A stretch of DNA of 64,000 nucleotides, from IMG/VR virus record IMGVR_UViG_3300031857_000038, positions 1-64,000 of that record. One strand, 5' to 3'. Positions 380 to 12,836 of the stretch are shown here, piece by piece. The position numbers and the translations under genes were made by a program. The notes under the pieces are model-generated. The model had not been told where the DNA came from and made no database searches. It worked only from the letters and a program-made list of their open reading frames with translations. Each line of letters starts with the position of its first letter. The stretch's first letter is position 1. This DNA comes from a virus.

Positions 380-2167
380 TTAGATTTGCATTCCGCCGCC
401 ACCTACTGGGCCTGCTGCTCCACCTGGAACTGCTGCTCCGCCTGCGTCACCTACTGGGCCCGCTGCTTCTAGTCCCTCAGCGCCCATTTCTTCACTGGAT
501 TCAATCTCATCAGCAGTTTCCATATCTGCTTCAAAGTCACCAGTTGATACACCGATGTTACGTAGATCGCTGCCGCCTGGTTCTTCAGTAACTTCTTCTT
601 TGTTTTCTTCTTCCCAAAGCTTTTCGTTACGCTTGATTTCTTCTTCTGTTAGACCCAAGAATCTTTCAAGTGCAAAACGCTTTGAAATGTATGGAAGACC
701 TTCCATGCTAGTGAATGTACCAACTCTAGCATTATCTAATTCGCTTTGGCGATATGCAGCAAAGTTCTGCGGAGGATTGAATACTAATTGGAATAGACTT
801 GTATCAATATTGAAGCCTCTCCAACGCAAGAACAGTTTGAATTCTTCATCAAACTTCAATGCCATGTAGTTCTGCAAACGTTCGCAATACTGATTGAATC
901 TGAATTCTTGAATCATCGCAGTACCGACACGACCATCGCTCAACGGTGTAGTGTTGTCATCGGGGCCAGTTGGCAAGTATGATGACGGAACACGTAGACC
1001 ACGGGCAAGACGATTGTTGAAGTAACGCAAGTCGTCAATCTCGCCTAGATTCTGTCCGCCTGGAAGAACTTCAACGCTTGAACCACGACCTTCTGCTGTT
1101 ACAGGGAAGAAGTAGTCTTCGTTCATTGATAGTGGGTTATATGTAGCGTCAACGATTGATGAGCCACCGTATACTGAAGGAATTCTGCGCTGGTGAATTT
1201 CATTCTTAACACGTTCAACGAATGCCATAGCTAAGTGACTTGGCATGTTACCAACGTCAATCTTGAACATTCTACGTTCAGGAGCACGCTGTACACGATA
1301 GATTAGAACAGCGTCTTCTAATAGTTCTTTCTGCTTGTAGACCTTAAAGATATTCTCAAGAATCGACTGACCAAACGGCCAGAATCTATCAAGCCCTTCT
1401 GTCAATGACAAGTGAAGAATATGCTTACTGTCTACCGCAGACTCGCTCTGTCCTAATGTGAAACGTGATCCTGTAGTGTTGTATGGCATAGCAGGAACTG
1501 TGTATGGAGTGTTAGTTCCGCCGCCAGTGCCGCCTAAACCAGTAGCAGGGTTAGCTGCAAAGTCTGTATTCGTTTTCTGTGCAACGCTTAAGTTTTGTAG
1601 GTTGACGTTGATATCTTTCAATACATACTGTTCGGGCTTCTTGCCTTCTGATTCGTTAACGATTACTTTGATAACCTTAACCATGTCAACCCAGTAAAGC
1701 TTGAAGTTTTCTGGGTCACGAACAAATACTTGGTCGCCGTACTTAATGATGTTGCGGAAAATCTTGAACATACGAACATCAAACTCATTGAGCTTGCACC
1801 ATTGCTGCAATTGCTTAGTCAATAGTTCTACTTCATGAGGAGTAGGATCTTCTTTGAATTCAAAGCTGAATGGTGTCTTATTGTGTTCGTTACGCTGAGT
1901 AGAGAATTCTGAGATAATGTCTAAGCAAGCATTGATTTCAGCGTCAACGTCCATCATTTCATATTGGTTGTAACGCTCAATTCTGTTTGGGTGTCCTGTA
2001 TAGACTTCTGGAAGTCTGGACATATAGTTCTTGTAACCAAAATCAGTGTTGCTATAGCCGCCTGACATTGACCCATCTTGGCCGTTCCAAGCACCGCTGT
2101 TGCTGTTCATGCCAGAGATAGGGCTTGATACGCCTGACTTGTTTAAAAACTTTTTCTTATATGACAT
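380..2167 (-). CDS. gp20: portal vertex protein, T4 gp20-like
   Basis: EDAVLIYRVQRAPERRMFKIDVGNMP, SMNEDYF, VEVLPGGQNLGEIDD and GLRVPSS match hallmark T4 gp20-family segments; acidic/Gly-rich C-terminal tail. Confidence 0.93.
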   Translation of the reverse strand: MSYKKKFLNKSGVSSPISGMNSNSGAWNGQDGSMSGGYSNTDFGYKNYMSRLPEVYTGHPNRIERYNQYEMMDVDAEINACLDIISEFSTQRNEHNKTPFSFEFKEDPTPHEVELLTKQLQQWCKLNEFDVRMFKIFRNIIKYGDQVFVRDPENFKLYWVDMVKVIKVIVNESEGKKPEQYVLKDINVNLQNLSVAQKTNTDFAANPATGLGGTGGGTNTPYTVPAMPYNTTGSRFTLGQSESAVDSKHILHLSLTEGLDRFWPFGQSILENIFKVYKQKELLEDAVLIYRVQRAPERRMFKIDVGNMPSHLAMAFVERVKNEIHQRRIPSVYGGSSIVDATYNPLSMNEDYFFPVTAEGRGSSVEVLPGGQNLGEIDDLRYFNNRLARGLRVPSSYLPTGPDDNTTPLSDGRVGTAMIQEFRFNQYCERLQNYMALKFDEEFKLFLRWRGFNIDTSLFQLVFNPPQNFAAYRQSELDNARVGTFTSMEGLPYISKRFALERFLGLTEEEIKRNEKLWEEENKEEVTEEPGGSDLRNIGVSTGDFEADMETADEIESSEEMGAEGLEAAGPVGDAGGAAVPGGAAGPVGGGGMQI

Positions 2168-2202
2168 AGGTAGAATTCTTCACTTTATAATTAGTATTTA
2201 TG

Positions 2203-5200
2203 TTAAACCATACTGTTCCTTAATATTCTAGTGCGAGTAGAATTGCCGTCATCTAAGGCATCAATCATGTTATCAAGCTTTCTTGTTAGAACGTCTATCA
2301 TTTCTTTTTGTGCGAAACTCATACGGTCAAGTGCTTCTCTTGTAACATTAGATCCCAACATTCCGTCAGTTCCGTCTGCTGCGGCAGGAGTCTTGGCTAA
2401 TCTCATCAAAATTGAATCCATGTTAAGCGGAGTCACTACTTCAGTTCCGTGCAACGTTGCTGGATATCCGCTAGCAGGGCCGCTGACGATTCCGCCTTTA
2501 GCTAATTCAATGTGTAAGTGATCTTTATGATCTTCTGTTCCCCAAATTACTTCAAATTGTTGAGCCGTTAAACGGTCCCTTAAGGCATCAAATCGTGCTT
2601 TTCTAGGTGGATCATTCCATTCTGGACCTTGCCCATCTATATTAATGTCAAGGGCTCGTCCACTATAATGTAATGAACCATCCTTATGACCGCCCGTTGG
2701 ATTAAAATCTGGGTGCCCCGATACATTAAACCCTTCACCTTTTAATGTCATAGCCAATTGTCTGATTCGCTGTTGTTGAGAACCACCTAAAACACGATCA
2801 ACTTCAGAACCAAAAAATGCACTTTGTTCAGATAAATTTCTGCCACCAAATTGGCTAATGTTAGTGTCTTCGGGGTACATGCTTGGGTTGTTTCTAATAA
2901 AGGCTTCCATTGTCATATTAGGATTCGTCGTCAATTCTCGTTGAAATTTTGTGAACCCGGCAATACCTAAGTGATGTGCTCCTCTCATTTCTGCATTAGT
3001 AGGAGCTCTTCCTAATCTGCTTGTTACATCTGCGATAGCTCCTCTAGCGTGTATTCTAGCTAATAGTTCGTCAGCTTGTTCTGCTTGAGGACTCAAAAAT
3101 GCAGTACCTTCTTTATTAACAAGTTGATCTAACGTAGGTGTAGATGTAAATCCTAACCTAGCTAATTCAGCCCTTTCTTGATCAGTCGCATATTTCGTAA
3201 ATGCGTCCGATCGGGCGGCCTGACCCATACCGTATGCGCCGCCAATAGTCGGGGCGCCACCCAACTTAGTCGCCCTAAGGTGTTTTCCTCCTCCACTTTC
3301 TAGTGCTTTATTAAACGCCATCATACTTTCTACGGTAGCGAGTGAATTTGCACTGCCACCGACTGAGGCTCCTTGAAGCTGTGTCAAACTTGTTCCAATT
3401 TGATTTACAAGACCCTTCATTGCATCCTTTAAGGTTGTAACCATTAAGGCAGCAGAATCCATAGCGTCGGTAAACTTTTTGAACAATGCAGTTTGTTGCT
3501 TCATTTGTTCTTGGGAATTCTTTGATAGAATCTTACGCTGTTCGATATCCTTGATTGTTTGATCAGTACTGTTGGCGAAATTTTTAGTATTGCTAGCGAG
3601 AGCCTCGTTGTTTTCTGTGGTGGCTTCTTTACGCTTTTCTATTTCTTCAGTTGTCTGCCCGCCAGTAGACGCACTGACAATTTTTTCATAACTTTCTTTG
3701 TTAGTTTTAGCAAGTTCAGCCACCGTATTTTTGAAGTCTGCGCTAGCAGTCGCCATTCCTTCACTTGCGGTTTTATTAGTTGTTGCCGCAGTTACTTGTT
3801 TCTCAGTGGCTGCTTTTTGCTCCGGAGTACCCGTTGTGACTCCACCTGTTATATATTCACTAAGCCCAAACGTTAATCCGCTTAATGCACTTTTACCTGC
3901 ATTAGCCATTTTACCACCAAACGAAGCATTAGGATCAGCATTAAATCCTTGGTAAGCATCGTATGCTGCAAAAGCACCTGCTAAAGGCAGAGCTAACTTT
4001 CCTAATATTCTTCCCGCGCCTTTTGCTACGTTCAATATTCTAGAACCTCCGCCGCCCTTAGGTGCTTTAGCAAATCTTCCTTGAGCGTCACGATATCTAC
4101 CGTCTGCACCTTTCTTTGGTGCTCCGCCTCCGCCACCGCCGCCGCCAACTAGCCCCCTAATCCAATTAATTGCACCGCTAAGGGCATTACGTAAACCTGA
4201 AAATACTGATGTTAGACCTTTAGTACCCTTGGCTAAACCGTTAAATAGTGAAACAACAGTTGTTGCTACTTTCATTCCGATGAAAGCACCAGTAATAACA
4301 GCTAAAATAGGGGCCCATTTTTTTACTTCTCCAATAAACCAATCAAAATTATCTTTGACAGTGTTTATAATTTCAAATAATTTTTGAGTTGCCCACTCTA
4401 GTGCTCCTGCAAATTTTGGAACAACGATTTCAGCTAATGCATACATGCTGTCATAGTATAGCTTTTGTATTTCACGTTCTGATGAACGGATCTGCTCAAC
4501 TGCATCAGCCATTGCATCGCCTTCAGCTTCTTTTGCTGCGGCAGCTTTTTTAGATTTTTCTACTTCTTCTTCTAGATTTTTACCTAAATAGTTGTTACCT
4601 TTAGTAATTGCTTCAGTAGAGCCAAGCAATGCTCTAGCAGATTCCTCACCCATAAACTGGAAGGAATCACCAACTCTTTCCACCATATTGTTCTGAAGGT
4701 CTGTTACTTTTTGAGCTTGCTTTAGAGAATCCGCTTGAATATTACCAGAAGTCTTAACGATGTTACTTACTTCGGTAGCACTTACCCCTAATGTTGCTAA
4801 TCCACTTGTGAACTGGTCATATACGCCGGTTCTTGCTAAACGTCCAAACTGAGAACCTATGTCTCTACCATAAGTATCAGTCATCGTTTGGATTAACTGG
4901 GTTCTGTTGTCTTGTTCTTTCTTAATAGCATCCGCAGCTTCGTGTTCGCCGGCAGCACGAAGACGTTGAATCTGTATATTTTCTTGACGAATCTTAACTT
5001 GTTCTTCAAACTCAGCTTTAACAATTTCACGTTCTTGTTGCATCTGTTCAGCAGTTTGACCAGTAAGGTCAGACATGATGATTAAGTTTTTAGCATAGGC
5101 TAATGATTCACGTTGTAGCTGACCTTCTGTTTTTGTTCTGTTTTCTAATGCTTTACCTGAAATACCCTGCATTTGGATATACATGCCTTGCATTTCAAGT

Positions 5201-5934
5201 AATCTATCTTGGTCAACACCCAATCTACCAAATTTGCGACGAACATCATCTGTTACCGCCGCCATTTCCATAAATCTTAATGCACCCTCACCAGCAGAAC
5301 CACCTAAGCTAAGAATGTTTGTGCCGAAGCCAGACATAGTTTTGCTGAGCTTCATTATCTCTTCGCCGGAGAATCTAGCGTTAGATCCTAATTCTTGTAT
5401 GCCAGAGAGAGTTGTAGGTAAGATACCGGCAAATTTAGAAGTTTCGTCTCTAAATTGTACAACACTGTCTACTGACTTAAAGATACCAGCAGCGAAAAAC
5501 CCAAGAGCTTTTGCGGCGCCGCCTACAACCATGCCTAAAACGCCAAAGTTTTTACCAATGTCCCACGCTGCATCGCCAGCATTATCAAACGCATTGCCGT
5601 ATTTTTCTAGATTTTTTTGACCATCAATGAGAGCCTTACCAAAATTTGTAACAGCAGCCTGACCGCTGATTAGTCCTCTAGAGAAATTAGCAGCAGCTTC
5701 AGCGTATTTTTGTTGGGCAACCGCGCCGGCTTCTAATGCCTTTGTAGACCCAGATAGGACTTCAGTTTGCTTTTTAGTAGCTTCAGTGTTGCTTTTTACT
5801 GCATCCGCAGCTTTTGAGGTTGATTGTAGGGAATTCAGTAACTTTGAAGTAGCAGTGGCTTGCTGGTTGAGCAAGTCAACCATTGTTCTCATATGTTCTT
5901 CGTAGTCTCTCTGAATTTCTGGATCCATGCTCAA
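2203..5934 (-). CDS. tape-measure-like virion protein with C-terminal putative peptidoglycan hydrolase domains
   Basis: 1243 aa, Ala/Gly/Gln-rich helical body with hydrophobic segments; RDAQGRF motif; ESGG...GAYG...GRAPT..E...AHHLG (lysozyme-like); SLHYSGRALDI...HKDHLHIE (peptidase M15-like); AKGGIVSGP.SGYPATLHGTE tail motif. Confidence 0.7.
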   Translation of the reverse strand: MSMDPEIQRDYEEHMRTMVDLLNQQATATSKLLNSLQSTSKAADAVKSNTEATKKQTEVLSGSTKALEAGAVAQQKYAEAAANFSRGLISGQAAVTNFGKALIDGQKNLEKYGNAFDNAGDAAWDIGKNFGVLGMVVGGAAKALGFFAAGIFKSVDSVVQFRDETSKFAGILPTTLSGIQELGSNARFSGEEIMKLSKTMSGFGTNILSLGGSAGEGALRFMEMAAVTDDVRRKFGRLGVDQDRLLEMQGMYIQMQGISGKALENRTKTEGQLQRESLAYAKNLIIMSDLTGQTAEQMQQEREIVKAEFEEQVKIRQENIQIQRLRAAGEHEAADAIKKEQDNRTQLIQTMTDTYGRDIGSQFGRLARTGVYDQFTSGLATLGVSATEVSNIVKTSGNIQADSLKQAQKVTDLQNNMVERVGDSFQFMGEESARALLGSTEAITKGNNYLGKNLEEEVEKSKKAAAAKEAEGDAMADAVEQIRSSEREIQKLYYDSMYALAEIVVPKFAGALEWATQKLFEIINTVKDNFDWFIGEVKKWAPILAVITGAFIGMKVATTVVSLFNGLAKGTKGLTSVFSGLRNALSGAINWIRGLVGGGGGGGGAPKKGADGRYRDAQGRFAKAPKGGGGSRILNVAKGAGRILGKLALPLAGAFAAYDAYQGFNADPNASFGGKMANAGKSALSGLTFGLSEYITGGVTTGTPEQKAATEKQVTAATTNKTASEGMATASADFKNTVAELAKTNKESYEKIVSASTGGQTTEEIEKRKEATTENNEALASNTKNFANSTDQTIKDIEQRKILSKNSQEQMKQQTALFKKFTDAMDSAALMVTTLKDAMKGLVNQIGTSLTQLQGASVGGSANSLATVESMMAFNKALESGGGKHLRATKLGGAPTIGGAYGMGQAARSDAFTKYATDQERAELARLGFTSTPTLDQLVNKEGTAFLSPQAEQADELLARIHARGAIADVTSRLGRAPTNAEMRGAHHLGIAGFTKFQRELTTNPNMTMEAFIRNNPSMYPEDTNISQFGGRNLSEQSAFFGSEVDRVLGGSQQQRIRQLAMTLKGEGFNVSGHPDFNPTGGHKDGSLHYSGRALDINIDGQGPEWNDPPRKARFDALRDRLTAQQFEVIWGTEDHKDHLHIELAKGGIVSGPASGYPATLHGTEVVTPLNMDSILMRLAKTPAAADGTDGMLGSNVTREALDRMSFAQKEMIDVLTRKLDNMIDALDDGNSTRTRILRNSMV

Positions 5935-5993: not shown

Positions 5994-6029
5994 GTGTTAA
6001 TTAACCGCTAAAATTTTATGAGGAACAAC

Positions 6030-6866
6030 ATGGAAAACAATCCACTACGACAATACTTCAGAAGACCATCAGTCTATCTAAAATTACCCAGCGGGGGAAA
6101 AGGTTACCCCGAAGATGTGTTGGATTTGACTCCAACCGGCGAACTGCCCGTATTTCCAATGACTGCTATTGATGAAATTAGTGCTAGAACACCCGACGCA
6201 CTTTTCAACGGCACAACTGTAGCAGACTTAATCAAGAGTTGTATTCCTAACATTAAGGATCCGTGGAAAATATCAAGCGATGATATGGATGCAATTTTGA
6301 TTGCAATTCGTGCAGCTAGTGTCGGAGACGGATTAGAGGTTGAATCAATCTGCCCATCCTGTACAGAAAAAAGCAATTATAACGTAAATCTTATGGGACT
6401 ACTCAGTACTATTGTTCCCGGTAACTATGATGAAGTATTAGAAGCAGGCAATGTTAAGGTTAAGCTCAAGCCATTGACTTACAAGGACATGAACGCTGGT
6501 GCATTAAAGCAATTTGAAATGCAACGCTATTTTATGGAAATAGAAGCCGAAGAAGACATGGAGAAGAAGAATAAGATGGGAATTGAGGCACTTGAGAAAG
6601 TCACCTTAGTTACTATGGATTTGATTTCCCAGACTGTTGATTATGTTGAAACTCCCGATGGTGAGCGTGTTGATAACCCGGAGTTCATCAGCGAGTTCAT
6701 TAGAAGCTGTGATCGTACTACATTCACTGCAATTCGTGACTTCAATGCTGAACTAAAGAAAAACACCGAAATCAAACCAATTCATACTACGTGTCCATCT
6801 TGTGAACACGAATATGATCAGCCAATCACATTGAACCCAACTGATTTTTTCGGCGAAGGCTTCTAA
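6030..6866 (+). CDS. baseplate hub / tail assembly chaperone, T4 gp26-like
   Basis: NPL.QYFRRP..Y.KLPSGG N-terminus, D.D.ILIAIR.AS.G, two CPSC zinc-ribbon motifs, C-terminal DFF. Start placed at ATG 6030 because GAGGA (6020-6024) precedes it. Confidence 0.8.
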   Translation: MENNPLRQYFRRPSVYLKLPSGGKGYPEDVLDLTPTGELPVFPMTAIDEISARTPDALFNGTTVADLIKSCIPNIKDPWKISSDDMDAILIAIRAASVGDGLEVESICPSCTEKSNYNVNLMGLLSTIVPGNYDEVLEAGNVKVKLKPLTYKDMNAGALKQFEMQRYFMEIEAEEDMEKKNKMGIEALEKVTLVTMDLISQTVDYVETPDGERVDNPEFISEFIRSCDRTTFTAIRDFNAELKKNTEIKPIHTTCPSCEHEYDQPITLNPTDFFGEGF

Positions 6867-7081
6867 CTGCTAACGCCGAAAGCATCAAGAAGCTTATTGA
6901 GACTTACGAACAAGAGGTAGCTGAAATTAAAAAGTCCGCCCTCTCAATGGCCTGGTACATGAGAGGGGGAGCTTCCTACCAAGACATTATGAATATGTCT
7001 GAGACGGAACGTAGAGCAATTAACGATATTATTGAGAACAACTTAGAAATAACGAAGAAATCACAACTTCCATTCTTCTAA
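6845..7081 (+). CDS. -1-frame extension of the gp26-like gene (gp51/gpT-like), likely expressed by programmed frameshift; absent from the ORF track
   Basis: The frame is open from the heptamer T TTT TTC (6845-6851) to TAA 7079-7081 and reads RRRLLTANAESIKKLIETYEQEVAEIKKSALSMAWYMRGGASYQDIMNMSETERRAINDIIENNLEITKKSQLPFF. The first ATG (6947) lacks an SD. Confidence 0.7.
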   Translation, partial: FFRRRLLTANAESIKKLIETYEQEVAEIKKSALSMAWYMRGGASYQDIMNMSETERRAINDIIENNLEITKKSQLPFF

Positions 7082-7089
7082 AGCTTGGG

Positions 7090-7140
7090 AGTTGTTCTTC
7101 GAACAACTTAGACACTCACTACGTTCGGTCTATTCTTTTT
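7090..7140 (+). terminator. two adjacent hairpins followed by a T-tract; possible terminator
   Basis: AGTTGTTC-TTC-GAACAACT (7090-7108), TAGAC...GTCTA (7109-7132), then TTCTTTTT, right after the stop at 7081. Confidence 0.45.
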
Positions 7141-7169
7141 AACAATAAATTCATTATAACATTTAAGAG

Positions 7170-7545
7170 ATATACATTGCCGGTTTAGAAGCCATGGTAG
7201 TGCTCCTGAGGGCACTACCAAAAGCTGAGGTCCTTGCCATGGCCCGTCATCCTTTGCTGTCTTTCCCCGTCATACTAGCTTTACATGCTGTATAACGCCA
7301 CCGGTTGCCCTGTAAAGTTTACTGGGTTGTAGTGAAGCTATAAAGTGGAACTCACTCTATTCTTCGGCAACGCATGTTCTATAGCATCAAGACAGAATAT
7401 CTATAGACTCATTCAAGGTTCGCCTACCGTGCGAGAGCCTTGTCGGTGTTCCCTAGGATCGCTCCTAGGCATACTCCAGAATCCGGCCGCATTCATTCGT
7501 GGTGCAACCTCAAGGAGGACTGTAATAACAGTCATGTCGATGTAA
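7170..7545. ncRNA. candidate large structured non-coding RNA or structured DNA element, unassigned family
   Basis: At least six local stems (7195-7220, 7308-7326, 7379-7406, 7414-7442, 7452-7469, 7518-7533) plus longer-range complementarity (7175-7182/7365-7372; 7189-7195/7239-7245) in a gap between convergent genes. Confidence 0.55.
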
Positions 7546-7565
7546 AAGGGTTCTGTGTTAATAGT

Positions 7566-8114
7566 TTAAATATTGATTGTCAAGATTTCATCTGACTTGG
7601 TGTCGTTTGAGCCTGAGTAAACTTTAAGAAGGTCTTTGTTGAGTTTAAAAAAGTGTTCATGTTCCATAATAATCCACTCACCTGCTGTTTCAGAGTTGTA
7701 GTGGATGAAGTTGTCTGCAATCCAAGTAAACTTAGATTCTACAGCAACAAACTTGCCTTTTCTATTGAACTTCATGAAAAGAATAGAGCAATCGTCGGTT
7801 TCAGCAACATCCATTAGTTGCTTGATCCAGCCATCAATAACTTTACATTCACCTGTCATCAACAAGTGAAACGGAAAGTCAGCATAACTTTTGCATTCTG
7901 CGTTGAACTTAGTAAAAGACTGTCCAGGTACGATATCGCCCTTGAAGCTTCTAACTTGTCCTTCATGAAGAAATTCTTTACGAGACTGATTCTTGCCTCC
8001 CACATACGCACCACTTCCGGGCGCTCTAATAAAACTTTCGTTATACGTCTTTGTTAAGAAGGTTGCAATCTCTCTTTCAAAAGAAGAACCCTTAGCTTTC
8101 TGTGGACTTGGCAT
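7566..8114 (-). CDS. Holliday junction resolvase-like PD-(D/E)xK nuclease
   Basis: KAKGSSFEREIA...RAPGSGA...GDI...ECK motif order typical of Hjc-like phage resolvases; located next to gp46/47. Confidence 0.8.
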   Translation of the reverse strand: MPSPQKAKGSSFEREIATFLTKTYNESFIRAPGSGAYVGGKNQSRKEFLHEGQVRSFKGDIVPGQSFTKFNAECKSYADFPFHLLMTGECKVIDGWIKQLMDVAETDDCSILFMKFNRKGKFVAVESKFTWIADNFIHYNSETAGEWIIMEHEHFFKLNKDLLKVYSGSNDTKSDEILTINI

Positions 8115-8151: not shown

Positions 8152-10236
8152 TTATTCTACGTCATCTGTAGCTGTGCTGTAGGTTGTGAACCCATTTTCT
8201 TTCAGCACCTTAAGAACACTCGGGACACGCCCTGCTAGTTCTTCTCTGTGACTTACTAGCCAAATAGACTTGTTGCGTCTACGTGACATATCTTTAAGAA
8301 TAGCCATTGAGTTTTCAACACCAATACTATCCATACCGCTGTCTATAAGTTCGTCAATGAATAGTGTATTGATTGAGAAATATAGATTTTCCCACACATC
8401 ACGAAACGCAAAACTTAATCCAAGAATAAGTCGGTTCCGCTCACCGCGAGATAGATTGTCAAAATCAAGCTCACGCCCGAGTTCGGTAATTTCAACCGAT
8501 AGATCGTTCTTGAAGACAACGGTATGGGGTAATCCTATTTTATCAAGATAATGAGTTAATCTTGCATTCAGATAGCTCAAGTTCTGGTCAATAATCTTCT
8601 TACGAACAAAGCTATCTTTGCTCGTGAGAATATCAAGTAAGAACTTCAAGTGATCACCATACTTACTTAGCTCGTTAATCTTGTCAAATGTAATTGTTTG
8701 CAGCGCACGACTTTCCATATCAATAATCTGTTCGTGATATGGGTCAGTTTCTTCTGCCTTAGTTGCAATAGCTTTCTCTAGATTGTCAACGACTGTGCGA
8801 TGCTCAACTGCTTCTGCCTCAGTGTCATAATGTGTGACTGGACGAATGCCTGCGCTCACACAAGCATTTTCAATCAACTGGTCTGCATAAGGATCGTCTT
8901 CGTTCTTCTTTGCTTCAATCTGTTGCTGCAATCTTTCAAGTTCAGAACTATGCTTGATTGCTTCTGCCTCAGTCTTGTAATGCGTAGTCGGCTTCTCGCC
9001 CAAAACGAAAATAGAATTTTTATTTTTTTCTAAAGAGTTTTGGGTTTGGGCAAGTTCTTCAACTGCGCTAACGAGAAGTTCACGTTTGCTATTGATGACC
9101 GAGGTATGATTCTCATCGTGGAAGTCTTGACCACAAGCGTAGCACTTGTTTTCTTCAAGGGTCTTGATTTCTTGTTCAAGCTTATCAACAAGTGCTTTAT
9201 CCTTCTTCAAAGAAGACTCAAGCGTTGTAATGGTCTTGTTTATATTTGCAAGCTCTAGCTTGTTAGCCTCATAGACCTTTAGGTCAAAGTGAGATTGCAA
9301 CTCAGCCGTAATATCAATATGGCTTAACGTATCATATTGAACCTGCAATGCAGCAACATCACTATCAAGCTTTTGTTTCCAAGCAGTTTGGCGAGCTAAG
9401 ATAGCTTCATAGCGTTCCTGCTTTTGCTTCAAGTCAAGATAGACTGCTAAATCCTTGTGCGCTTGAAGTTCGGCTTCAATATCAATCTTGCTAAGCTCAT
9501 CATAATCAAGCACAAGCTTGTTCAATGATTCGTCGTGCTGCTTCTGCCACAATCTCTGCCGGCGCTTAAGACCATCAATCTGTTCTTGAACACGCACGTT
9601 GGCATCTTCAACTGCTCTGTTTCTGAATTCTTCCTGTTGAATAGAATCCTTGTTCAATCTAATCTTTTCTTTGATTAGGTCTGCCTTTTCAGATAGCAAT
9701 GTGATACCGAGCAACTGTTCAATAACATGACGCTGGTCATTGGCTCTCATAGACAAGAAGGGTTCGCTATAGGTATTGAGAGCAACGATATGTTTAAACA
9801 TATCACTACTCATGCCAATAGCGTGTTCAATAGCTAGCTGCGTTTCTCTGTTCTCGCCCTGAGATTCGTTCTTATCTTCCTTGTTATTCTGCAAACTGTT
9901 GTTTACGTAGAAGCGAAGAACATTGGGCTTTCTACCGCGCTCAATCTTGTATTCAGTACCGTTTACGCTAAACTCTAGCGTAACCATCATACCCTTTGCG
10001 TTAGTGCGATTGATTAGATTGTCTTTACGAATCTGATTGATAGGGTTACCAAACAATACGTAACTCAAGCCTTGAATCAACGTTGTCTTACCAGTACCAT
10101 TTCTAGCACCGTCACCGCCTAAGTCAAGGTTCTCACCTAGAATAAGTGTAAGTTCTTTACTATCAAAGTTTACTGCTTGTGTTACTGCACCAATACTAAG
10201 AAAGTTTCGTAGGGTAATGTTCTTTAATACAATCAT
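8152..10236 (-). CDS. gp46: recombination ATPase, T4 gp46 / Rad50-SbcC-like
   Basis: NFLSIG, Walker A RNGTGKTT, long coiled coil with CYAC zinc hook, signature LSRGE, Walker B LFIDE, VSH. Confidence 0.93.
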   Translation of the reverse strand: MIVLKNITLRNFLSIGAVTQAVNFDSKELTLILGENLDLGGDGARNGTGKTTLIQGLSYVLFGNPINQIRKDNLINRTNAKGMMVTLEFSVNGTEYKIERGRKPNVLRFYVNNSLQNNKEDKNESQGENRETQLAIEHAIGMSSDMFKHIVALNTYSEPFLSMRANDQRHVIEQLLGITLLSEKADLIKEKIRLNKDSIQQEEFRNRAVEDANVRVQEQIDGLKRRQRLWQKQHDESLNKLVLDYDELSKIDIEAELQAHKDLAVYLDLKQKQERYEAILARQTAWKQKLDSDVAALQVQYDTLSHIDITAELQSHFDLKVYEANKLELANINKTITTLESSLKKDKALVDKLEQEIKTLEENKCYACGQDFHDENHTSVINSKRELLVSAVEELAQTQNSLEKNKNSIFVLGEKPTTHYKTEAEAIKHSSELERLQQQIEAKKNEDDPYADQLIENACVSAGIRPVTHYDTEAEAVEHRTVVDNLEKAIATKAEETDPYHEQIIDMESRALQTITFDKINELSKYGDHLKFLLDILTSKDSFVRKKIIDQNLSYLNARLTHYLDKIGLPHTVVFKNDLSVEITELGRELDFDNLSRGERNRLILGLSFAFRDVWENLYFSINTLFIDELIDSGMDSIGVENSMAILKDMSRRRNKSIWLVSHREELAGRVPSVLKVLKENGFTTYSTATDDVE

Positions 10237-10874
10237 GTTAATCCGTTATCTTCACTGAGTTGGTCACACCACTCTTTAATTTCATTATAGTTCACAATCA
10301 CCCTAGATTTATAGTTTTTTGGCAAACTTTTTGTGTGATTAGACATGGTAACTTTACCAAAGTCAAACAACTCGCAGCCAGCAACTAAATCCTCATAACA
10401 AACATCGTAGTGTTCGTATAGTGTTGCATACCTATTCCAACATTCATTCCAGCTCTTTTTAGCCATGATATAATCTTCAAGACGAGATTTTTTTATGTGT
10501 AATTGGTTCTTCTCTAACTCTTGGATTATTAATTCAAACTTTCCACTGCCTAGTCCATTTACTATATTGTGAAATTTAGTATGTTCCATAACAACAGTAC
10601 TAAGAAACTGCTCAAATATATTCTTCCTATAGCATCGTATAAGAATAGGGTTATCATAGTTCTTCATTGACGATAGTAGTCCAAAAGAATGAGTACTCAA
10701 TACTAAGCGTTCATCCCCAGGATTTGGGAACAACTCTGCACTTTCTTGTTCAAATAACTTTTTATCGTCTGTCATGTGCCATTGCCTGCCTAATTTATTA
10801 GCAAGATACACGGAGAGCCAAGTACTTCCTGACCTAGGTTCTCTAAACAACCAGACGATTCTGTTATCAAACAT
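10233..10874 (-). CDS. sulfotransferase-like P-loop protein
   Basis: N-terminal REPRSGSTWL (PAPS-binding-like), R.N..EQFLS and YEDL motifs as in Stf0-type sulfotransferases; start and stop overlap both neighbours. Confidence 0.65.
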   Translation of the reverse strand: MFDNRIVWLFREPRSGSTWLSVYLANKLGRQWHMTDDKKLFEQESAELFPNPGDERLVLSTHSFGLLSSMKNYDNPILIRCYRKNIFEQFLSTVVMEHTKFHNIVNGLGSGKFELIIQELEKNQLHIKKSRLEDYIMAKKSWNECWNRYATLYEHYDVCYEDLVAGCELFDFGKVTMSNHTKSLPKNYKSRVIVNYNEIKEWCDQLSEDNGLT

Positions 10875-11890
10875 TATAGATCCTTGTATATAGCTAGTAA
10901 TAGCTTAGGATCAAAGAAGTCACTTTCAATAGCAGAGATTTGGTCAACAATAATTTGGTCAACGCTTTCAAAGGTTACTTCGCCGGGAGCTAAGTCTTGA
11001 CTGTGTTGGTCTAGTTTCATTGGGATAAGTGACATTTCTCGTATGTTGTGCTTTGGAATCAATGTCTCACGAATGAAGTTAGCTTCTTCGTATGAGATAT
11101 CAATATCAAGATGCACTCTAACACTACTCTTAGGAAGAAGCAAGCCCTCTGGGTTATCTAGTATGTCGCTAAGCTTATATACACGAAACAGTGGTTGTCC
11201 AGGCCATGCGTGAAACTCAGGCTCTTCGCCCCATTCAAGAATCATCATGCCTCGCTGGTCATCGCCAGCATCTGCATAGTTGTGGGGGAAAGCGTTTCCG
11301 ATGTACCAAATGTTGTTACGTGCTTGACGCTTATGGAAGTGACCGCTGAATACTTTCTCAAAGCCAGCTAAGTCATTGTCGTTCACATCGCCGTGATCGG
11401 GCATCTGAACCATAGCATTCATGTAGAATGCAGGAAGCTCAAAGTGTCCAAACAAATACTTGCCTGATAGCTTAGCCAGCTTCTTATGATCTTCACCGAC
11501 TAACCAAGGAGCAATAACTACGTCATCTTGAATGAACCAGTCATTCACGATTGTTACGTTAGGTAGATGCTTCGCCCATTCAACACTATGAACATCACGC
11601 TTGTCTCTATAATAGAGGTCGTGATTGCCCGGAATGAAATAGACATGCTCAAAACTGTTGTTTAGCTTTTCTAAAGCACGAAGACCAAACTGCATAGTTT
11701 GAATATTGATACTTGCTCTATGGTGATTGTAATCACCTAAGAAAAAGCAAGTTTCGCAATTTTCTTCTTTTGCTTTCTGAATAAACCAGTCAACAAAGTC
11801 TGAACAATCTTGGTTATGTTGTACACTGTTAGACTTAAGCCCAAAGTGAATGTCGGTGAAGACTGCTGCCTTCTTGAATAGAGTTTTCAT
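10874..11890 (-). CDS. gp47: recombination nuclease, T4 gp47 / Mre11-SbcD-like
   Basis: Metallophosphoesterase motifs DIHFG, LGD, GNHD, GHFE, SGHFH. Confidence 0.93.
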   Translation of the reverse strand: MKTLFKKAAVFTDIHFGLKSNSVQHNQDCSDFVDWFIQKAKEENCETCFFLGDYNHHRASINIQTMQFGLRALEKLNNSFEHVYFIPGNHDLYYRDKRDVHSVEWAKHLPNVTIVNDWFIQDDVVIAPWLVGEDHKKLAKLSGKYLFGHFELPAFYMNAMVQMPDHGDVNDNDLAGFEKVFSGHFHKRQARNNIWYIGNAFPHNYADAGDDQRGMMILEWGEEPEFHAWPGQPLFRVYKLSDILDNPEGLLLPKSSVRVHLDIDISYEEANFIRETLIPKHNIREMSLIPMKLDQHSQDLAPGEVTFESVDQIIVDQISAIESDFFDPKLLLAIYKDL

Positions 11891-11939: not shown

Positions 11940-12836
11940 CTAATCTGCGAGTCCTTGACCCAATTTCTTGCCGCTCATCTGACGGCTAAAGCTTGGATTG
12001 AACCCGTTCATTTCTAAGATATCATCACGAATGTTTTGGCTTCGCTTTTCAGTATTCAACACTCTACAGAAACTATTGTTTACTGCTGCTGTATAGTATG
12101 CGAATGGATTAGCACTCTTTGCTTCATTGAATCTAAGACCAACATATGTTAACTGTAGAATAGCACTTGCTTCCATCTCATCACGGTAAGTATAACCTCT
12201 CCAGTTAAACTTCATTGAATACTTCTCACAAAGCATCATATACATTCTCGCTAACTTATTAGTGATTTGCCCATGATCTTTGTTGAAGTGACCGTTCTCC
12301 ATACCGCCTTCCCAGTGACTCTTACCAACGCAGATGAATGAGTTAGTTTCGTCTAACTTGTAGTGCTGGAAAGGAGGGAAGTTGACCTTGACATGGACCA
12401 TATCGTCAACGTCTTTCTTAGTGGTCTTGTCTTCCAAATCAGAGAAGATATCTTCGTCATCATCTTCAAAGACAAAAATATCTTTGGCTGTTTTTTTCTT
12501 GGTTGTTTTTCTAGGTTGCTTCTGTGACATTGGAACATGCTCCCATGTCATTACACGAAAAATCAAATCAGTAGTTGGAATGTCTTCGGCTAATACTTTC
12601 TCGCCGGTTTCTTGTGTTAGCCTAATTGCTCTTGTTTCTTTTGCTTGTTGAATCTGTTCTGGTTTCAGCGCATATTCTAAACTAGTGGTTAGTTCGCTGT
12701 CGGGCATATCAATGATGATATCGTATCTATGGTACTCCGGATCTACGAATGAGCAATATGTGGTTTTGCTTTTGTGAATTTCTTTTAGAATGTCTTTGTT
12801 ATTTAGATAGTTAATTTTTTTTGGTTTAGCTGCCAT
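11940..12836 (-). CDS. gp55: late-transcription sigma factor, T4 gp55-like
   Basis: NYLNNKD N-terminus, NWRGYTY.DEM, FNEAKSANPFAYYT...NSF; gene order 55-47-46 as in T4-like phages. Confidence 0.85.
   Translation of the reverse strand: MAAKPKKINYLNNKDILKEIHKSKTTYCSFVDPEYHRYDIIIDMPDSELTTSLEYALKPEQIQQAKETRAIRLTQETGEKVLAEDIPTTDLIFRVMTWEHVPMSQKQPRKTTKKKTAKDIFVFEDDDEDIFSDLEDKTTKKDVDDMVHVKVNFPPFQHYKLDETNSFICVGKSHWEGGMENGHFNKDHGQITNKLARMYMMLCEKYSMKFNWRGYTYRDEMEASAILQLTYVGLRFNEAKSANPFAYYTAAVNNSFCRVLNTEKRSQNIRDDILEMNGFNPSFSRQMSGKKLGQGLAD

Follow-up and report, generated by a model that had tools for sequence, protein, structure and literature searches.

What occupies the long gap between the convergent baseplate hub and nuclease genes of the virus IMGVR_UViG_3300031857_000038, and from which strand does it act? 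We analysed positions 1 to 64,000 of this IMG/VR record (the window, to which coordinates refer unless a locus is named); the whole record comprises 118,793 bases and is 34% complete by CheckV. No open reading frame (ORF) of at least 80 amino acids (aa) was present across 6867-7565. The true gap between the convergent genes, 7082-7565, had 484 nucleotides (nt) and was the largest ORF-free stretch of the window, as the original prediction for this locus had claimed; the runner-up internal gaps had 161-202 nt. The G+C content was 0.45-0.50 over 7150-7524 compared to 0.32-0.39 in the flanks. The original prediction saw a densely base-paired element at 7170-7545, either an unclassified large phage non-coding RNA (ncRNA) or a structured origin or packaging element. 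By our analysis, the gap contains an intricately folded ncRNA of about 360 nt, which is a strong candidate for a class of large functional RNAs that is new.

With the nuclease protein as bait, 79 related viral loci were fetched. The gap was recognisably homologous in 40 of these loci (67-91% identity), and it measured at least 397 nt in all 58 fetched loci that contained both flanking genes. A second search, with a 16-nt word taken from the box of highest conservation, yielded at least 119 viral stretches, and the element was present at nhmmer E<1e-30 in 101 of the 119 word-matched stretches listed. At least 129 near-full-length copies were found by nhmmer, with 91 distinct sequences, or 78 once pairs of >95% identity were removed. 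Matches of the stretch to sequencing runs comprised 20 entries of 11 studies, chiefly metagenomes of fresh water or lakes. Contigs of one DNA run and of three runs tentatively labelled as RNA, two of which are probably DNA, covered the stretch patchily, with no bearing on transcription. The gap RNA is conserved in more than 100 uncultured T4-like giant phages, mostly of fresh water.

The genomic address was constant as well. Both neighbours were visible in 58 of the 101 new loci among the matches listed, and the order was always nuclease gene (upstream, same strand), RNA, and the -1 frame ORF of gp26 (opposite strand). In nearly all of the remaining 43 loci the flanks were too short to tell the gene order; L141 and L142 were the sole loci with room for neighbours yet without a match. 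The RNA is located at the 3' end of a leftward recombination operon (gp47, gp46 and the PD-(D/E)XK nuclease), which is convergent with the baseplate hub gene, and no gene follows downstream of it on its own strand. For the 5' domain we built a covariance model (R1; 152 positions, 36 pairs), which matched once in the 118.8-kb record, so that the RNA is single-copy.

The strand was deduced from three observations. Folding of 7170-7545 resulted in -122.9 kcal/mol for the minus strand (z -3.57), and in the comparison with dinucleotide-shuffled controls none of 100 shuffles was as good. The plus strand reached -115.2 kcal/mol (z -2.08), with 5 of 100 shuffles as good. When the RNAalifold pairs of a 28-sequence alignment were read on the minus strand, G-U pairs outnumbered A-C combinations by 176 to 44. 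Some positions were mostly U-G (25 of 28 at one pair), which the plus strand would read as A-C mismatches. The apex of hairpin H3 carried a GNRA tetraloop (GUGA, GCGA, GCAA or GUAA) in 28 of 70 members, compared to 2 of 70 on the complement. Because of the G-U bias, the GNRA loops and the better z-score of the fold, we placed the RNA on the minus strand, running from about 7534 to 7176 and co-oriented with the nuclease and gp46/47 genes. The original prediction had left the strand open; these data settle it as minus, and we are highly confident that a real structured RNA is encoded there.

To evaluate the structure, a model of 92 base pairs was counted on a MAFFT alignment of the 78 sequences (alignment A2). 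Standard pairs made up 91.2% of 6988 cells, compared to 79.2±0.3% with shuffled partners (0 of 500 shuffles reached the observed value) and 34-41% when the partners were slid by 1-3 columns. Changes on both sides were seen in 64 of the 92 pairs (shuffled mean 48.4, reached by 0 of 500), and the covariation score was 0.382 versus 0.164 for shuffled and 0.057-0.084 for slid partners. Covariation among the 78 homologues was thus present, and it included two pseudoknots. The alignment showed that sequence and base pairs are under selection on the RNA strand, both purifying and compensatory, in at least 78 distinct relatives. The predicted fold (Table 1) is compact and has eleven helices, ten of them well supported and two of these ten pseudoknots, joined by several invariant junctions. 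The invariant unpaired junctions included ACUACAG, UUACAGGGCAACCGGU, GGAUGACGGG and GAAYACCGA. H4, H5 and H9 were the best helices. Five of the six local stems of the original prediction, at 7195-7220, 7379-7406, 7414-7442, 7452-7469 and 7518-7533, were borne out by covariation and correspond to H10, H5, H4, H3 and H1, respectively; for the near-invariant H10 the covariation was limited to 2 of 8 pairs.

The individual helices differed in their support. The two parts of H2 were 97.9% and 88.8% paired, with changes on both sides in 8 of 11 pairs, and by eye its closing CUCC:GGAG is replaced by CCCA:UGGG or UCCA:UGGA in distant loci. The MAFFT alignment was poor at H3. Four pairs of helix A were invariant and the fifth varied (UA38, CG18, UG10, AU3, other 9); base 7299 covaried also with 7316, in competition with helix A. 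The first pseudoknot (PK1) comprised six pairs, 7395-7390 with 7257-7262, each of which formed in 97-100% of sequences and showed as many as three pair types (UA47/CG28/AU3; GC51/AU26/GU1; CG58/UA19/UG1). We infer a seventh pair, 7389-7263; a further candidate pair, 7396-7256, was discarded, as it paired in 0 of 78 sequences. H6 had four invariant pairs and compensatory changes at 7367-7308 (UA in 2) and 7366-7309 (UA21, AU1, GC1). The length of H7 differed among members. In the second pseudoknot (PK2, also H8) all four pairs changed on both sides; the outermost of them (UA35/CG23/AU8/GC5) was missing from the window's own copy. H11 was weak (84.7% paired, changes on both sides in 1 of 6 pairs). 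The 3' flank of the core was A/U-rich, variable and without a hairpin.

Table 1. Position of the minus-strand RNA, its helices and boxes, and of neighbouring genes in the window; the last three rows give positions within the named loci. Numbers after pair types are counts of sequences.
Feature	Position	Strand	Partner	Remarks
RNA core	7176-7534	minus		5' end at about 7534; 7176 is the limit of the last conserved box; conservation limits of A1/A2
H1, variable hairpin, 6 bp	7518-7533	minus		changes on both sides in 5/5 tested pairs; 82% paired; G-U frequent
H2	7474-7517	minus		CUCC/GGAG closing helix, near-invariant internal loops UUGAG and GGAU, inner hairpin
H3, variable hairpin, often GNRA-capped	7452-7469	minus		changes on both sides in 7/7 pairs; 75-79% paired
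Helix A, 5' strand CACCG	7444-7448	minus	7299-7303	97.7% paired
H4, hairpin	7414-7442	minus		99.7% and 100% paired; changes on both sides in 6/8 pairs (GC41/CG31/UA4)
H5, hairpin	7374-7412	minus		loop holds pseudoknot strand 7389-7395; changes on both sides in 10/10 pairs; 99.5% paired
PK1, 5' strand CUGUCUU	7389-7395	minus	7257-7263	in H5 loop
H6, 5' strand GUUGCC	7366-7371	minus	7304-7309	95.5% paired
H7, variable hairpin, GAAG/CUUC base	7334-7365	minus		changes on both sides in 3/4 pairs of the base (AU39/GC25/GU13)
PK2 (H8), 5' strand CCC	7324-7326	minus	7265-7267	96% paired
H6, 3' strand GGCAAC	7304-7309	minus	7366-7371	
Helix A, 3' strand CGGUG	7299-7303	minus	7444-7448	
H9, hairpin	7268-7297	minus		changes on both sides in 10/10 pairs; 90.4% paired
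PK2 (H8), 3' strand GGG	7265-7267	minus	7324-7326	
PK1, 3' strand AAGACAG	7257-7263	minus	7389-7395	
H11, 5' strand, tentative	7239-7244	minus	7190-7195	within conserved GGAUGACGGGCCAUGGCAA box
H10, hairpin GGUAGUGC/GCACUACC	7196-7219	minus		near-invariant; 93.9% paired; changes on both sides in 2/8 pairs
H11, 3' strand, tentative	7190-7195	minus	7239-7244	across 19-nt bulge
3' box CCGGCAAU	7176-7183	minus		conserved in A2; 7365-7372 as partner unsupported
CACAGAACCC box	7548-7557	minus		between nuclease stop codon and H1; in part of the family
Mini-hairpin GAC-ACCAA-GUC	7594-7604	minus		within last codons of nuclease gene
Portal gp20	380-2167	minus		T4-type gene
1243-aa ORF	2203-5934	minus		between portal and hub genes
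gp26-like baseplate hub gene (gp26/gp51-like)	6018-6866	plus		
PD-(D/E)XK / RusA-like nuclease (PDDEXK_15)	7566-8114	minus		PF24608 6e-23, phrog_244
SbcC/gp46-like gene	8152-10236			
SbcD/gp47-like gene	10874-11890			
Late sigma factor gp55	11940-12836			
Gap with diverged element, L041	3520-3973			
Gap with diverged element, L044	3520-3916			
Gap with diverged element, L050	3517-3920			

Two pairings of the original prediction did not hold. The parts of the hairpin at 7308-7326 were 55.8% and 88.8% paired, without covariation, and the long-range helix 7175-7182/7365-7372 was 77.3% paired, with changes on both sides in 1 of 8 pairs. Taken jointly, they were no better than shuffled partners (71.3% versus 71.5% paired, reached by 433 of 500 shuffles; covariation 0.066 versus 0.069), and their bases are used by the covarying H6, PK2 and helix A. 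The repeat CCCGTCAT was present in two copies as described (7243-7253 and 7266-7276), but the second copy was not conserved as sequence and represents the 3' arm of the covarying H9. Two candidates of our own were rejected. A hairpin with GCAA tetraloop at 7301-7312 was contradicted by the changes supporting H6. An anti-Shine-Dalgarno function of the invariant CCUCCUU (7518-7512), as a mimic of the 16S 3' end, was dropped as well, as its CUCC pairs with GGAG at 7477-7474 and, by eye, covaries in distant loci.

Some loci showed the limits of the family. In L043, L048 and L049 the nhmmer match was restricted to a part of the 5' domain, with R1 scores of 30.3 bits in L048 and 20 bits in L043. In one clade, that of L048, a 261-aa ORF (3504-4289) separates the RNA (R1 match at 4332-4482) from the nuclease gene, and in both L048 and L043 the RNA is located about 800 nt away from the nuclease gene. 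Since the RNA of L048 persists despite the inserted ORF, we consider it tied to the convergent junction and not to the nuclease gene. A 305-aa ORF (2091-3008) precedes the nuclease gene of L048; as a guess from its cysteine motifs, it may be radical-SAM-like. Neither nhmmer nor R1 gave a match in L041, L044 and L050, in which the nuclease is about 60% identical. The same gap of these loci contained a diverged element of similar length (about 300-400 nt), in which H1, H2 and the UACAG..CAACCG box were still recognised by eye, together with a helix that resembles H6 and shows compensatory changes. The diverged form had conserved boxes of its own, including two GGAUGA(U/A)G boxes, which we take to resemble C-box or kink-turn motifs.

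Among 50,697 phage records there was no DNA match. The nuclease family was found in 61 records of cultured phages, the closest being the PA5oct group (43% identity), SCTP-2 (43%) and Phosso (40%). The order at the nuclease locus of PA5oct and SCTP-2 differed from that of the window, and R1 had no match in either genome. Prokaryote genomes contained no homologue among the 120 word matches listed; nhmmer found just the word in 7.

We also looked for signals upstream of the core. Among 60 members with enough flank, 57 had a mini-hairpin within 200 nt upstream of H2. It matched once in the whole 64-kb window, and some relatives had two copies. The 3-bp stem was retained in the variants GUC..GAC (counted) and GAG..CUC (by eye), and in the middle codon the residue varied (K, T, M, A, E) while the third base G was kept. 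The mini-hairpin, which is lacking in L048, is a possible leader or processing signal. Pairing of its loop ACCAN with UUGGU before H10 was rejected, as the two variable bases were uncorrelated. By eye, many members had an A/T-rich TA(A/C)A(A/T)(A/T) box 8-12 nt upstream of H1, which was weak in the window.

Known RNA classes were searched with the 4227 models of Rfam 15, among them GOLLD, ROOL, HEARO, OLE, raiA, RNase P, tmRNA, group I/II introns and riboswitches. There was no match at gathering score in the window. With E values up to 10, the region 6700-7900 gave seven weak matches of at most 21 bits versus thresholds of 40-70, one of which touched the edge of the element; the RNase P models gave none. 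Rfam searches on 20 family members resulted in five weak and unrelated matches, none of them recurrent. ARAGORN found no tRNA or tmRNA gene in the window. The original prediction had likewise recognised no hallmarks of tRNA, tmRNA, RNase P and group I/II introns, and its assignment as an unclassified large phage ncRNA stood: there was no Rfam match, no tRNA or tmRNA, no conserved frame and strong covariation.

How would such an RNA act? By analogy, we regard it as probably a stable trans-acting ornate RNA, that is, a ribonucleoprotein (RNP) scaffold or a ribozyme. It showed the sequence features of ornate RNAs, being about 360 nt long, with eleven helices, two of which are pseudoknots, and having no conserved ORF. 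Transcription would occur as the tail of the operon transcript or from the A/T-rich, -10-like box upstream of H1. The RNA would be released or stabilised by its own double-pseudoknotted fold and would accumulate as a stable RNA. It would then act in trans like GOLLD or ROOL, as a self-organised scaffold, an RNP component or a ribozyme, and would not be a simple regulator of the neighbouring gene. Provided that the minus-strand RNA is real, an autonomous role in trans is moderately favoured by analogy, because there is no downstream gene on the same strand and the RNA survives separation from the upstream gene (L048), and because its size, nested pseudoknots and invariant unpaired boxes exceed what a terminator or stabiliser needs.

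GOLLD and ROOL are found near tRNAs and form multimers. The window RNA is similar to them in having several hundred nt, many helices, pseudoknots and invariant junctions, and in being phage-borne without an obvious target in cis. It differs from them in the lacking Rfam match, the shorter length (about 360 nt), the absence of a neighbouring tRNA and the fixed position at a convergent junction. Because no model matches, it does not belong to GOLLD or ROOL. We consider it possible, though short of probable, that it represents an undescribed ornate RNA class of T4-like giant phages, mostly of fresh water, with a catalytic or self-assembling activity of its own.

Several points weigh against a trans-acting ornate RNA or against parts of its structure. 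Among the 20 sequencing-run entries listed, none was on record as RNA. The sole promoter-like site on the minus strand of the gap (7546-7519) is weak, and its second hexamer is inside the covarying H1; a consensus scan of 6800-7800 found no terminator-like sites on either strand. Our controls do not remove all phylogenetic signal; relatedness is kept by the shuffle and removed by sliding. The MAFFT alignment is sequence-based and was partly guided by the model, and the model was partly derived from the same sequences. H10 and H11 are nearly invariant, so that their pairing is putative. The fixed place at the convergent junction would also fit a role in cis, and the trans-acting ornate RNA itself is suggested by analogy.

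The role in cis is the best surviving alternative, although we consider it unlikely. The RNA would then be a 3'-untranslated module of the recombination operon, which blocks 3' exonucleases or RNA polymerase and insulates two convergent units, the early/middle recombination genes and the late baseplate genes. Its position agrees with this, as it forms the end of the operon, opposite the gp26/51-like gene (both flanks visible in this order in 58 of 101 loci among the matches listed), and stays at the junction when an extra ORF is inserted (L048). The sole promoter-like site of the consensus scan was also weak. Known mRNA stabilisers and terminators are single hairpins, whereas here conservation extends over about 360 nt, including both pseudoknots and numerous unpaired positions that are invariant. 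Furthermore, the minus strand has no U-tract or terminator-like site over 6800-7800.

It is improbable that a known class was missed, such as a divergent group I-like ribozyme, an RNase P-like RNA or a published candidate. The CACAGAACCC box, the sole resemblance to RNase P RNA, recalls the CR-V motif; it is located outside the core and absent from much of the family. In the core, the strand order H6-H7-PK2(5')-H6'-H9-PK2(3') loosely resembles the P3/P7 pseudoknot of group I introns. With the group I introns of T4-type phages the window RNA shares the phage origin, a similar size and a core pseudoknot. In contrast to them it is intergenic and has no flanking exons, being placed between complete convergent genes (stops at 7081 and 7566). 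There was no Intron_gpI match at E values up to 10, the place of P4-P6 is taken by the variable hairpin H7, and a 14-nt junction stands in the place of J7/3.

Regarding published candidates, Table 1 of PMC7318152 presents four unclassified ncRNAs of 236-619 nt, defined by RNA-seq, for the Pseudomonas jumbo phage PA5oct. They are unclassified like the window RNA, and PA5oct carries a 43%-identical nuclease gene. By the positions in that table (8.3, 22, 103 and 246 kb) they are not near the resolvase at 75 kb, and they gave no R1 match. The interval of about 2.2 kb from hub to resolvase in PA5oct (L320 1979-3491) contains five tiny annotated ORFs (38-150 aa) and about 660 unannotated nt. It had no R1 match and harbours none of the four ncRNAs of that table. 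A survey of IMG/VR from 2023 lists in a supplement anonymous candidates beside RusA genes (DNAVirus_124 with 20, DNAVirus_1256 with 1) and one, DNAVirus_6063, beside 41 PDDEXK_5 genes (PMC10690425), which is in favour of a missed class. The data source and the kind of evidence (conserved intergenic structure) are the same as for the window RNA, but the main text is silent on a baseplate, T4-like or jumbo context, and the survey describes no function or architecture (PMC10690425). By the listing of neighbour genes, on which our comparison was based, the window RNA may be one of the unnamed entries of this survey. Our literature searches, which took in passages of PMC10690425, 10.64898/2026.09.22.753630 and PMC7318152, found no published description of the RNA.

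A partnership with the PD-(D/E)XK (RusA-like) nuclease would make the RNA its scaffold, inhibitor or guide, comparable to TnpB and omega-RNA. This is suggested by its place in the main clade, where it follows the nuclease gene immediately and in the same orientation, and by the mini-hairpin conserved within the last codons of this gene (57 of 60 members). Omega-RNA (TnpB) and HEARO (IscB) are likewise large structured RNAs, co-oriented with a nuclease gene and starting in or just after it. The neighbour here is a small PD-(D/E)XK/RusA-like resolvase and not a RuvC or HNH nuclease, and the RNA has no HEARO match. It has no variable guide: the core lacks a guide-like variable single-stranded segment, and all its variable parts are covarying hairpins. 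It can also be separated from the gene, as the RNAs of L048 and L043 are distant from it and L048 has an intervening ORF and no mini-hairpin. PA5oct and SCTP-2 have the nuclease without an R1 match and with another arrangement of the locus. We therefore give this partnership little credence.

A role at the DNA level, as an origin, as a packaging site or as a cruciform on which the neighbouring junction-resolving nuclease would act, is very improbable. Many inverted repeats and the adjacent recombination genes speak for it. DNA hairpins are strand-symmetric, whereas the wobble pairs favour one strand by a factor of four and the GNRA loops are found on one strand, and pseudoknots between loops and single strands covary. 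There were no iterons, just 2-copy repeats of 10-12 nt, and the core has no A/T-rich unwinding block. The origin or packaging element of the original prediction is thus disfavoured.

A small protein gene (a 66-aa plus-strand ORF at 7345-7545 or a 40-aa minus-strand ORF at 7413-7535) can practically be dismissed: the stop-free stretches of the plus strand are long (median 69 aa; at least 60 aa in 53 of 78 members), but their start, end and frame vary among members, two or more frames run through identical conserved bases, the hairpins differ in length by numbers not divisible by three, conservation tracks base pairs, and the 78 members share no conserved reading frame in the element.

Some observations concern the neighbouring genes. 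The hub gene stops at 6866, and a start-less ORF in the -1 frame continues on the plus strand to 7081. A slippery heptamer T_TTT_TTC is present at 6845-6851, within the overlap of both frames, and related loci (for example L001 3034/3052) likewise show about 19 nt shared by two frames where the hub gene ends. The sequence suggests that the hub gene (6018-7081) is probably expressed with a programmed -1 frameshift. Just after the stop at 7081 there is a conserved hairpin (7091-7107), whose 7-bp stem carries the triloop UUC (on the opposite strand, GAA/GUA), followed by a covarying 5-bp stem with a conserved 14-nt loop (7109-7132) and TTCTTTTT at 7133-7140. These hairpins (7091-7140) are probably the plus-strand terminator of the hub gene mRNA, although the stem variants seen are all Watson-Crick and would fit either strand. 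The 1243-aa ORF had no PHROG match, and Peptidase_M15_4 was matched weakly by its residues 1083-1143 (E 0.0012, below threshold); the ORF may encode a large protein of the virion or baseplate that includes a cell-wall hydrolase domain.

To our knowledge, large RNAs of >300 nt with conserved tertiary structure are rare and comprise a handful of bacterial and phage classes. These include RNase P, group I/II introns, tmRNA, OLE, GOLLD, ROOL, HEARO and raiA. As far as we know, each of them proved to be a ribozyme, the core of an RNP or an RNA-only assembly. The comparative support for the window RNA is unusually clean, with two pseudoknots, defined strand and borders, more than 100 natural variants and a fixed genomic address across a widespread group of such uncultured phages, and the RNA is directly testable in vitro without a cultured host. 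If it has an activity of its own, it would act as a new ribozyme, or as a machine of RNA only or of RNA and protein, produced where the recombination genes meet the baseplate genes, and its diverged form in L041, L044 and L050 would point to an old, essential role in the phage lineage. The window RNA also shows that conserved RNA genes of giant T4-like phages are overlooked by protein-centred annotation.

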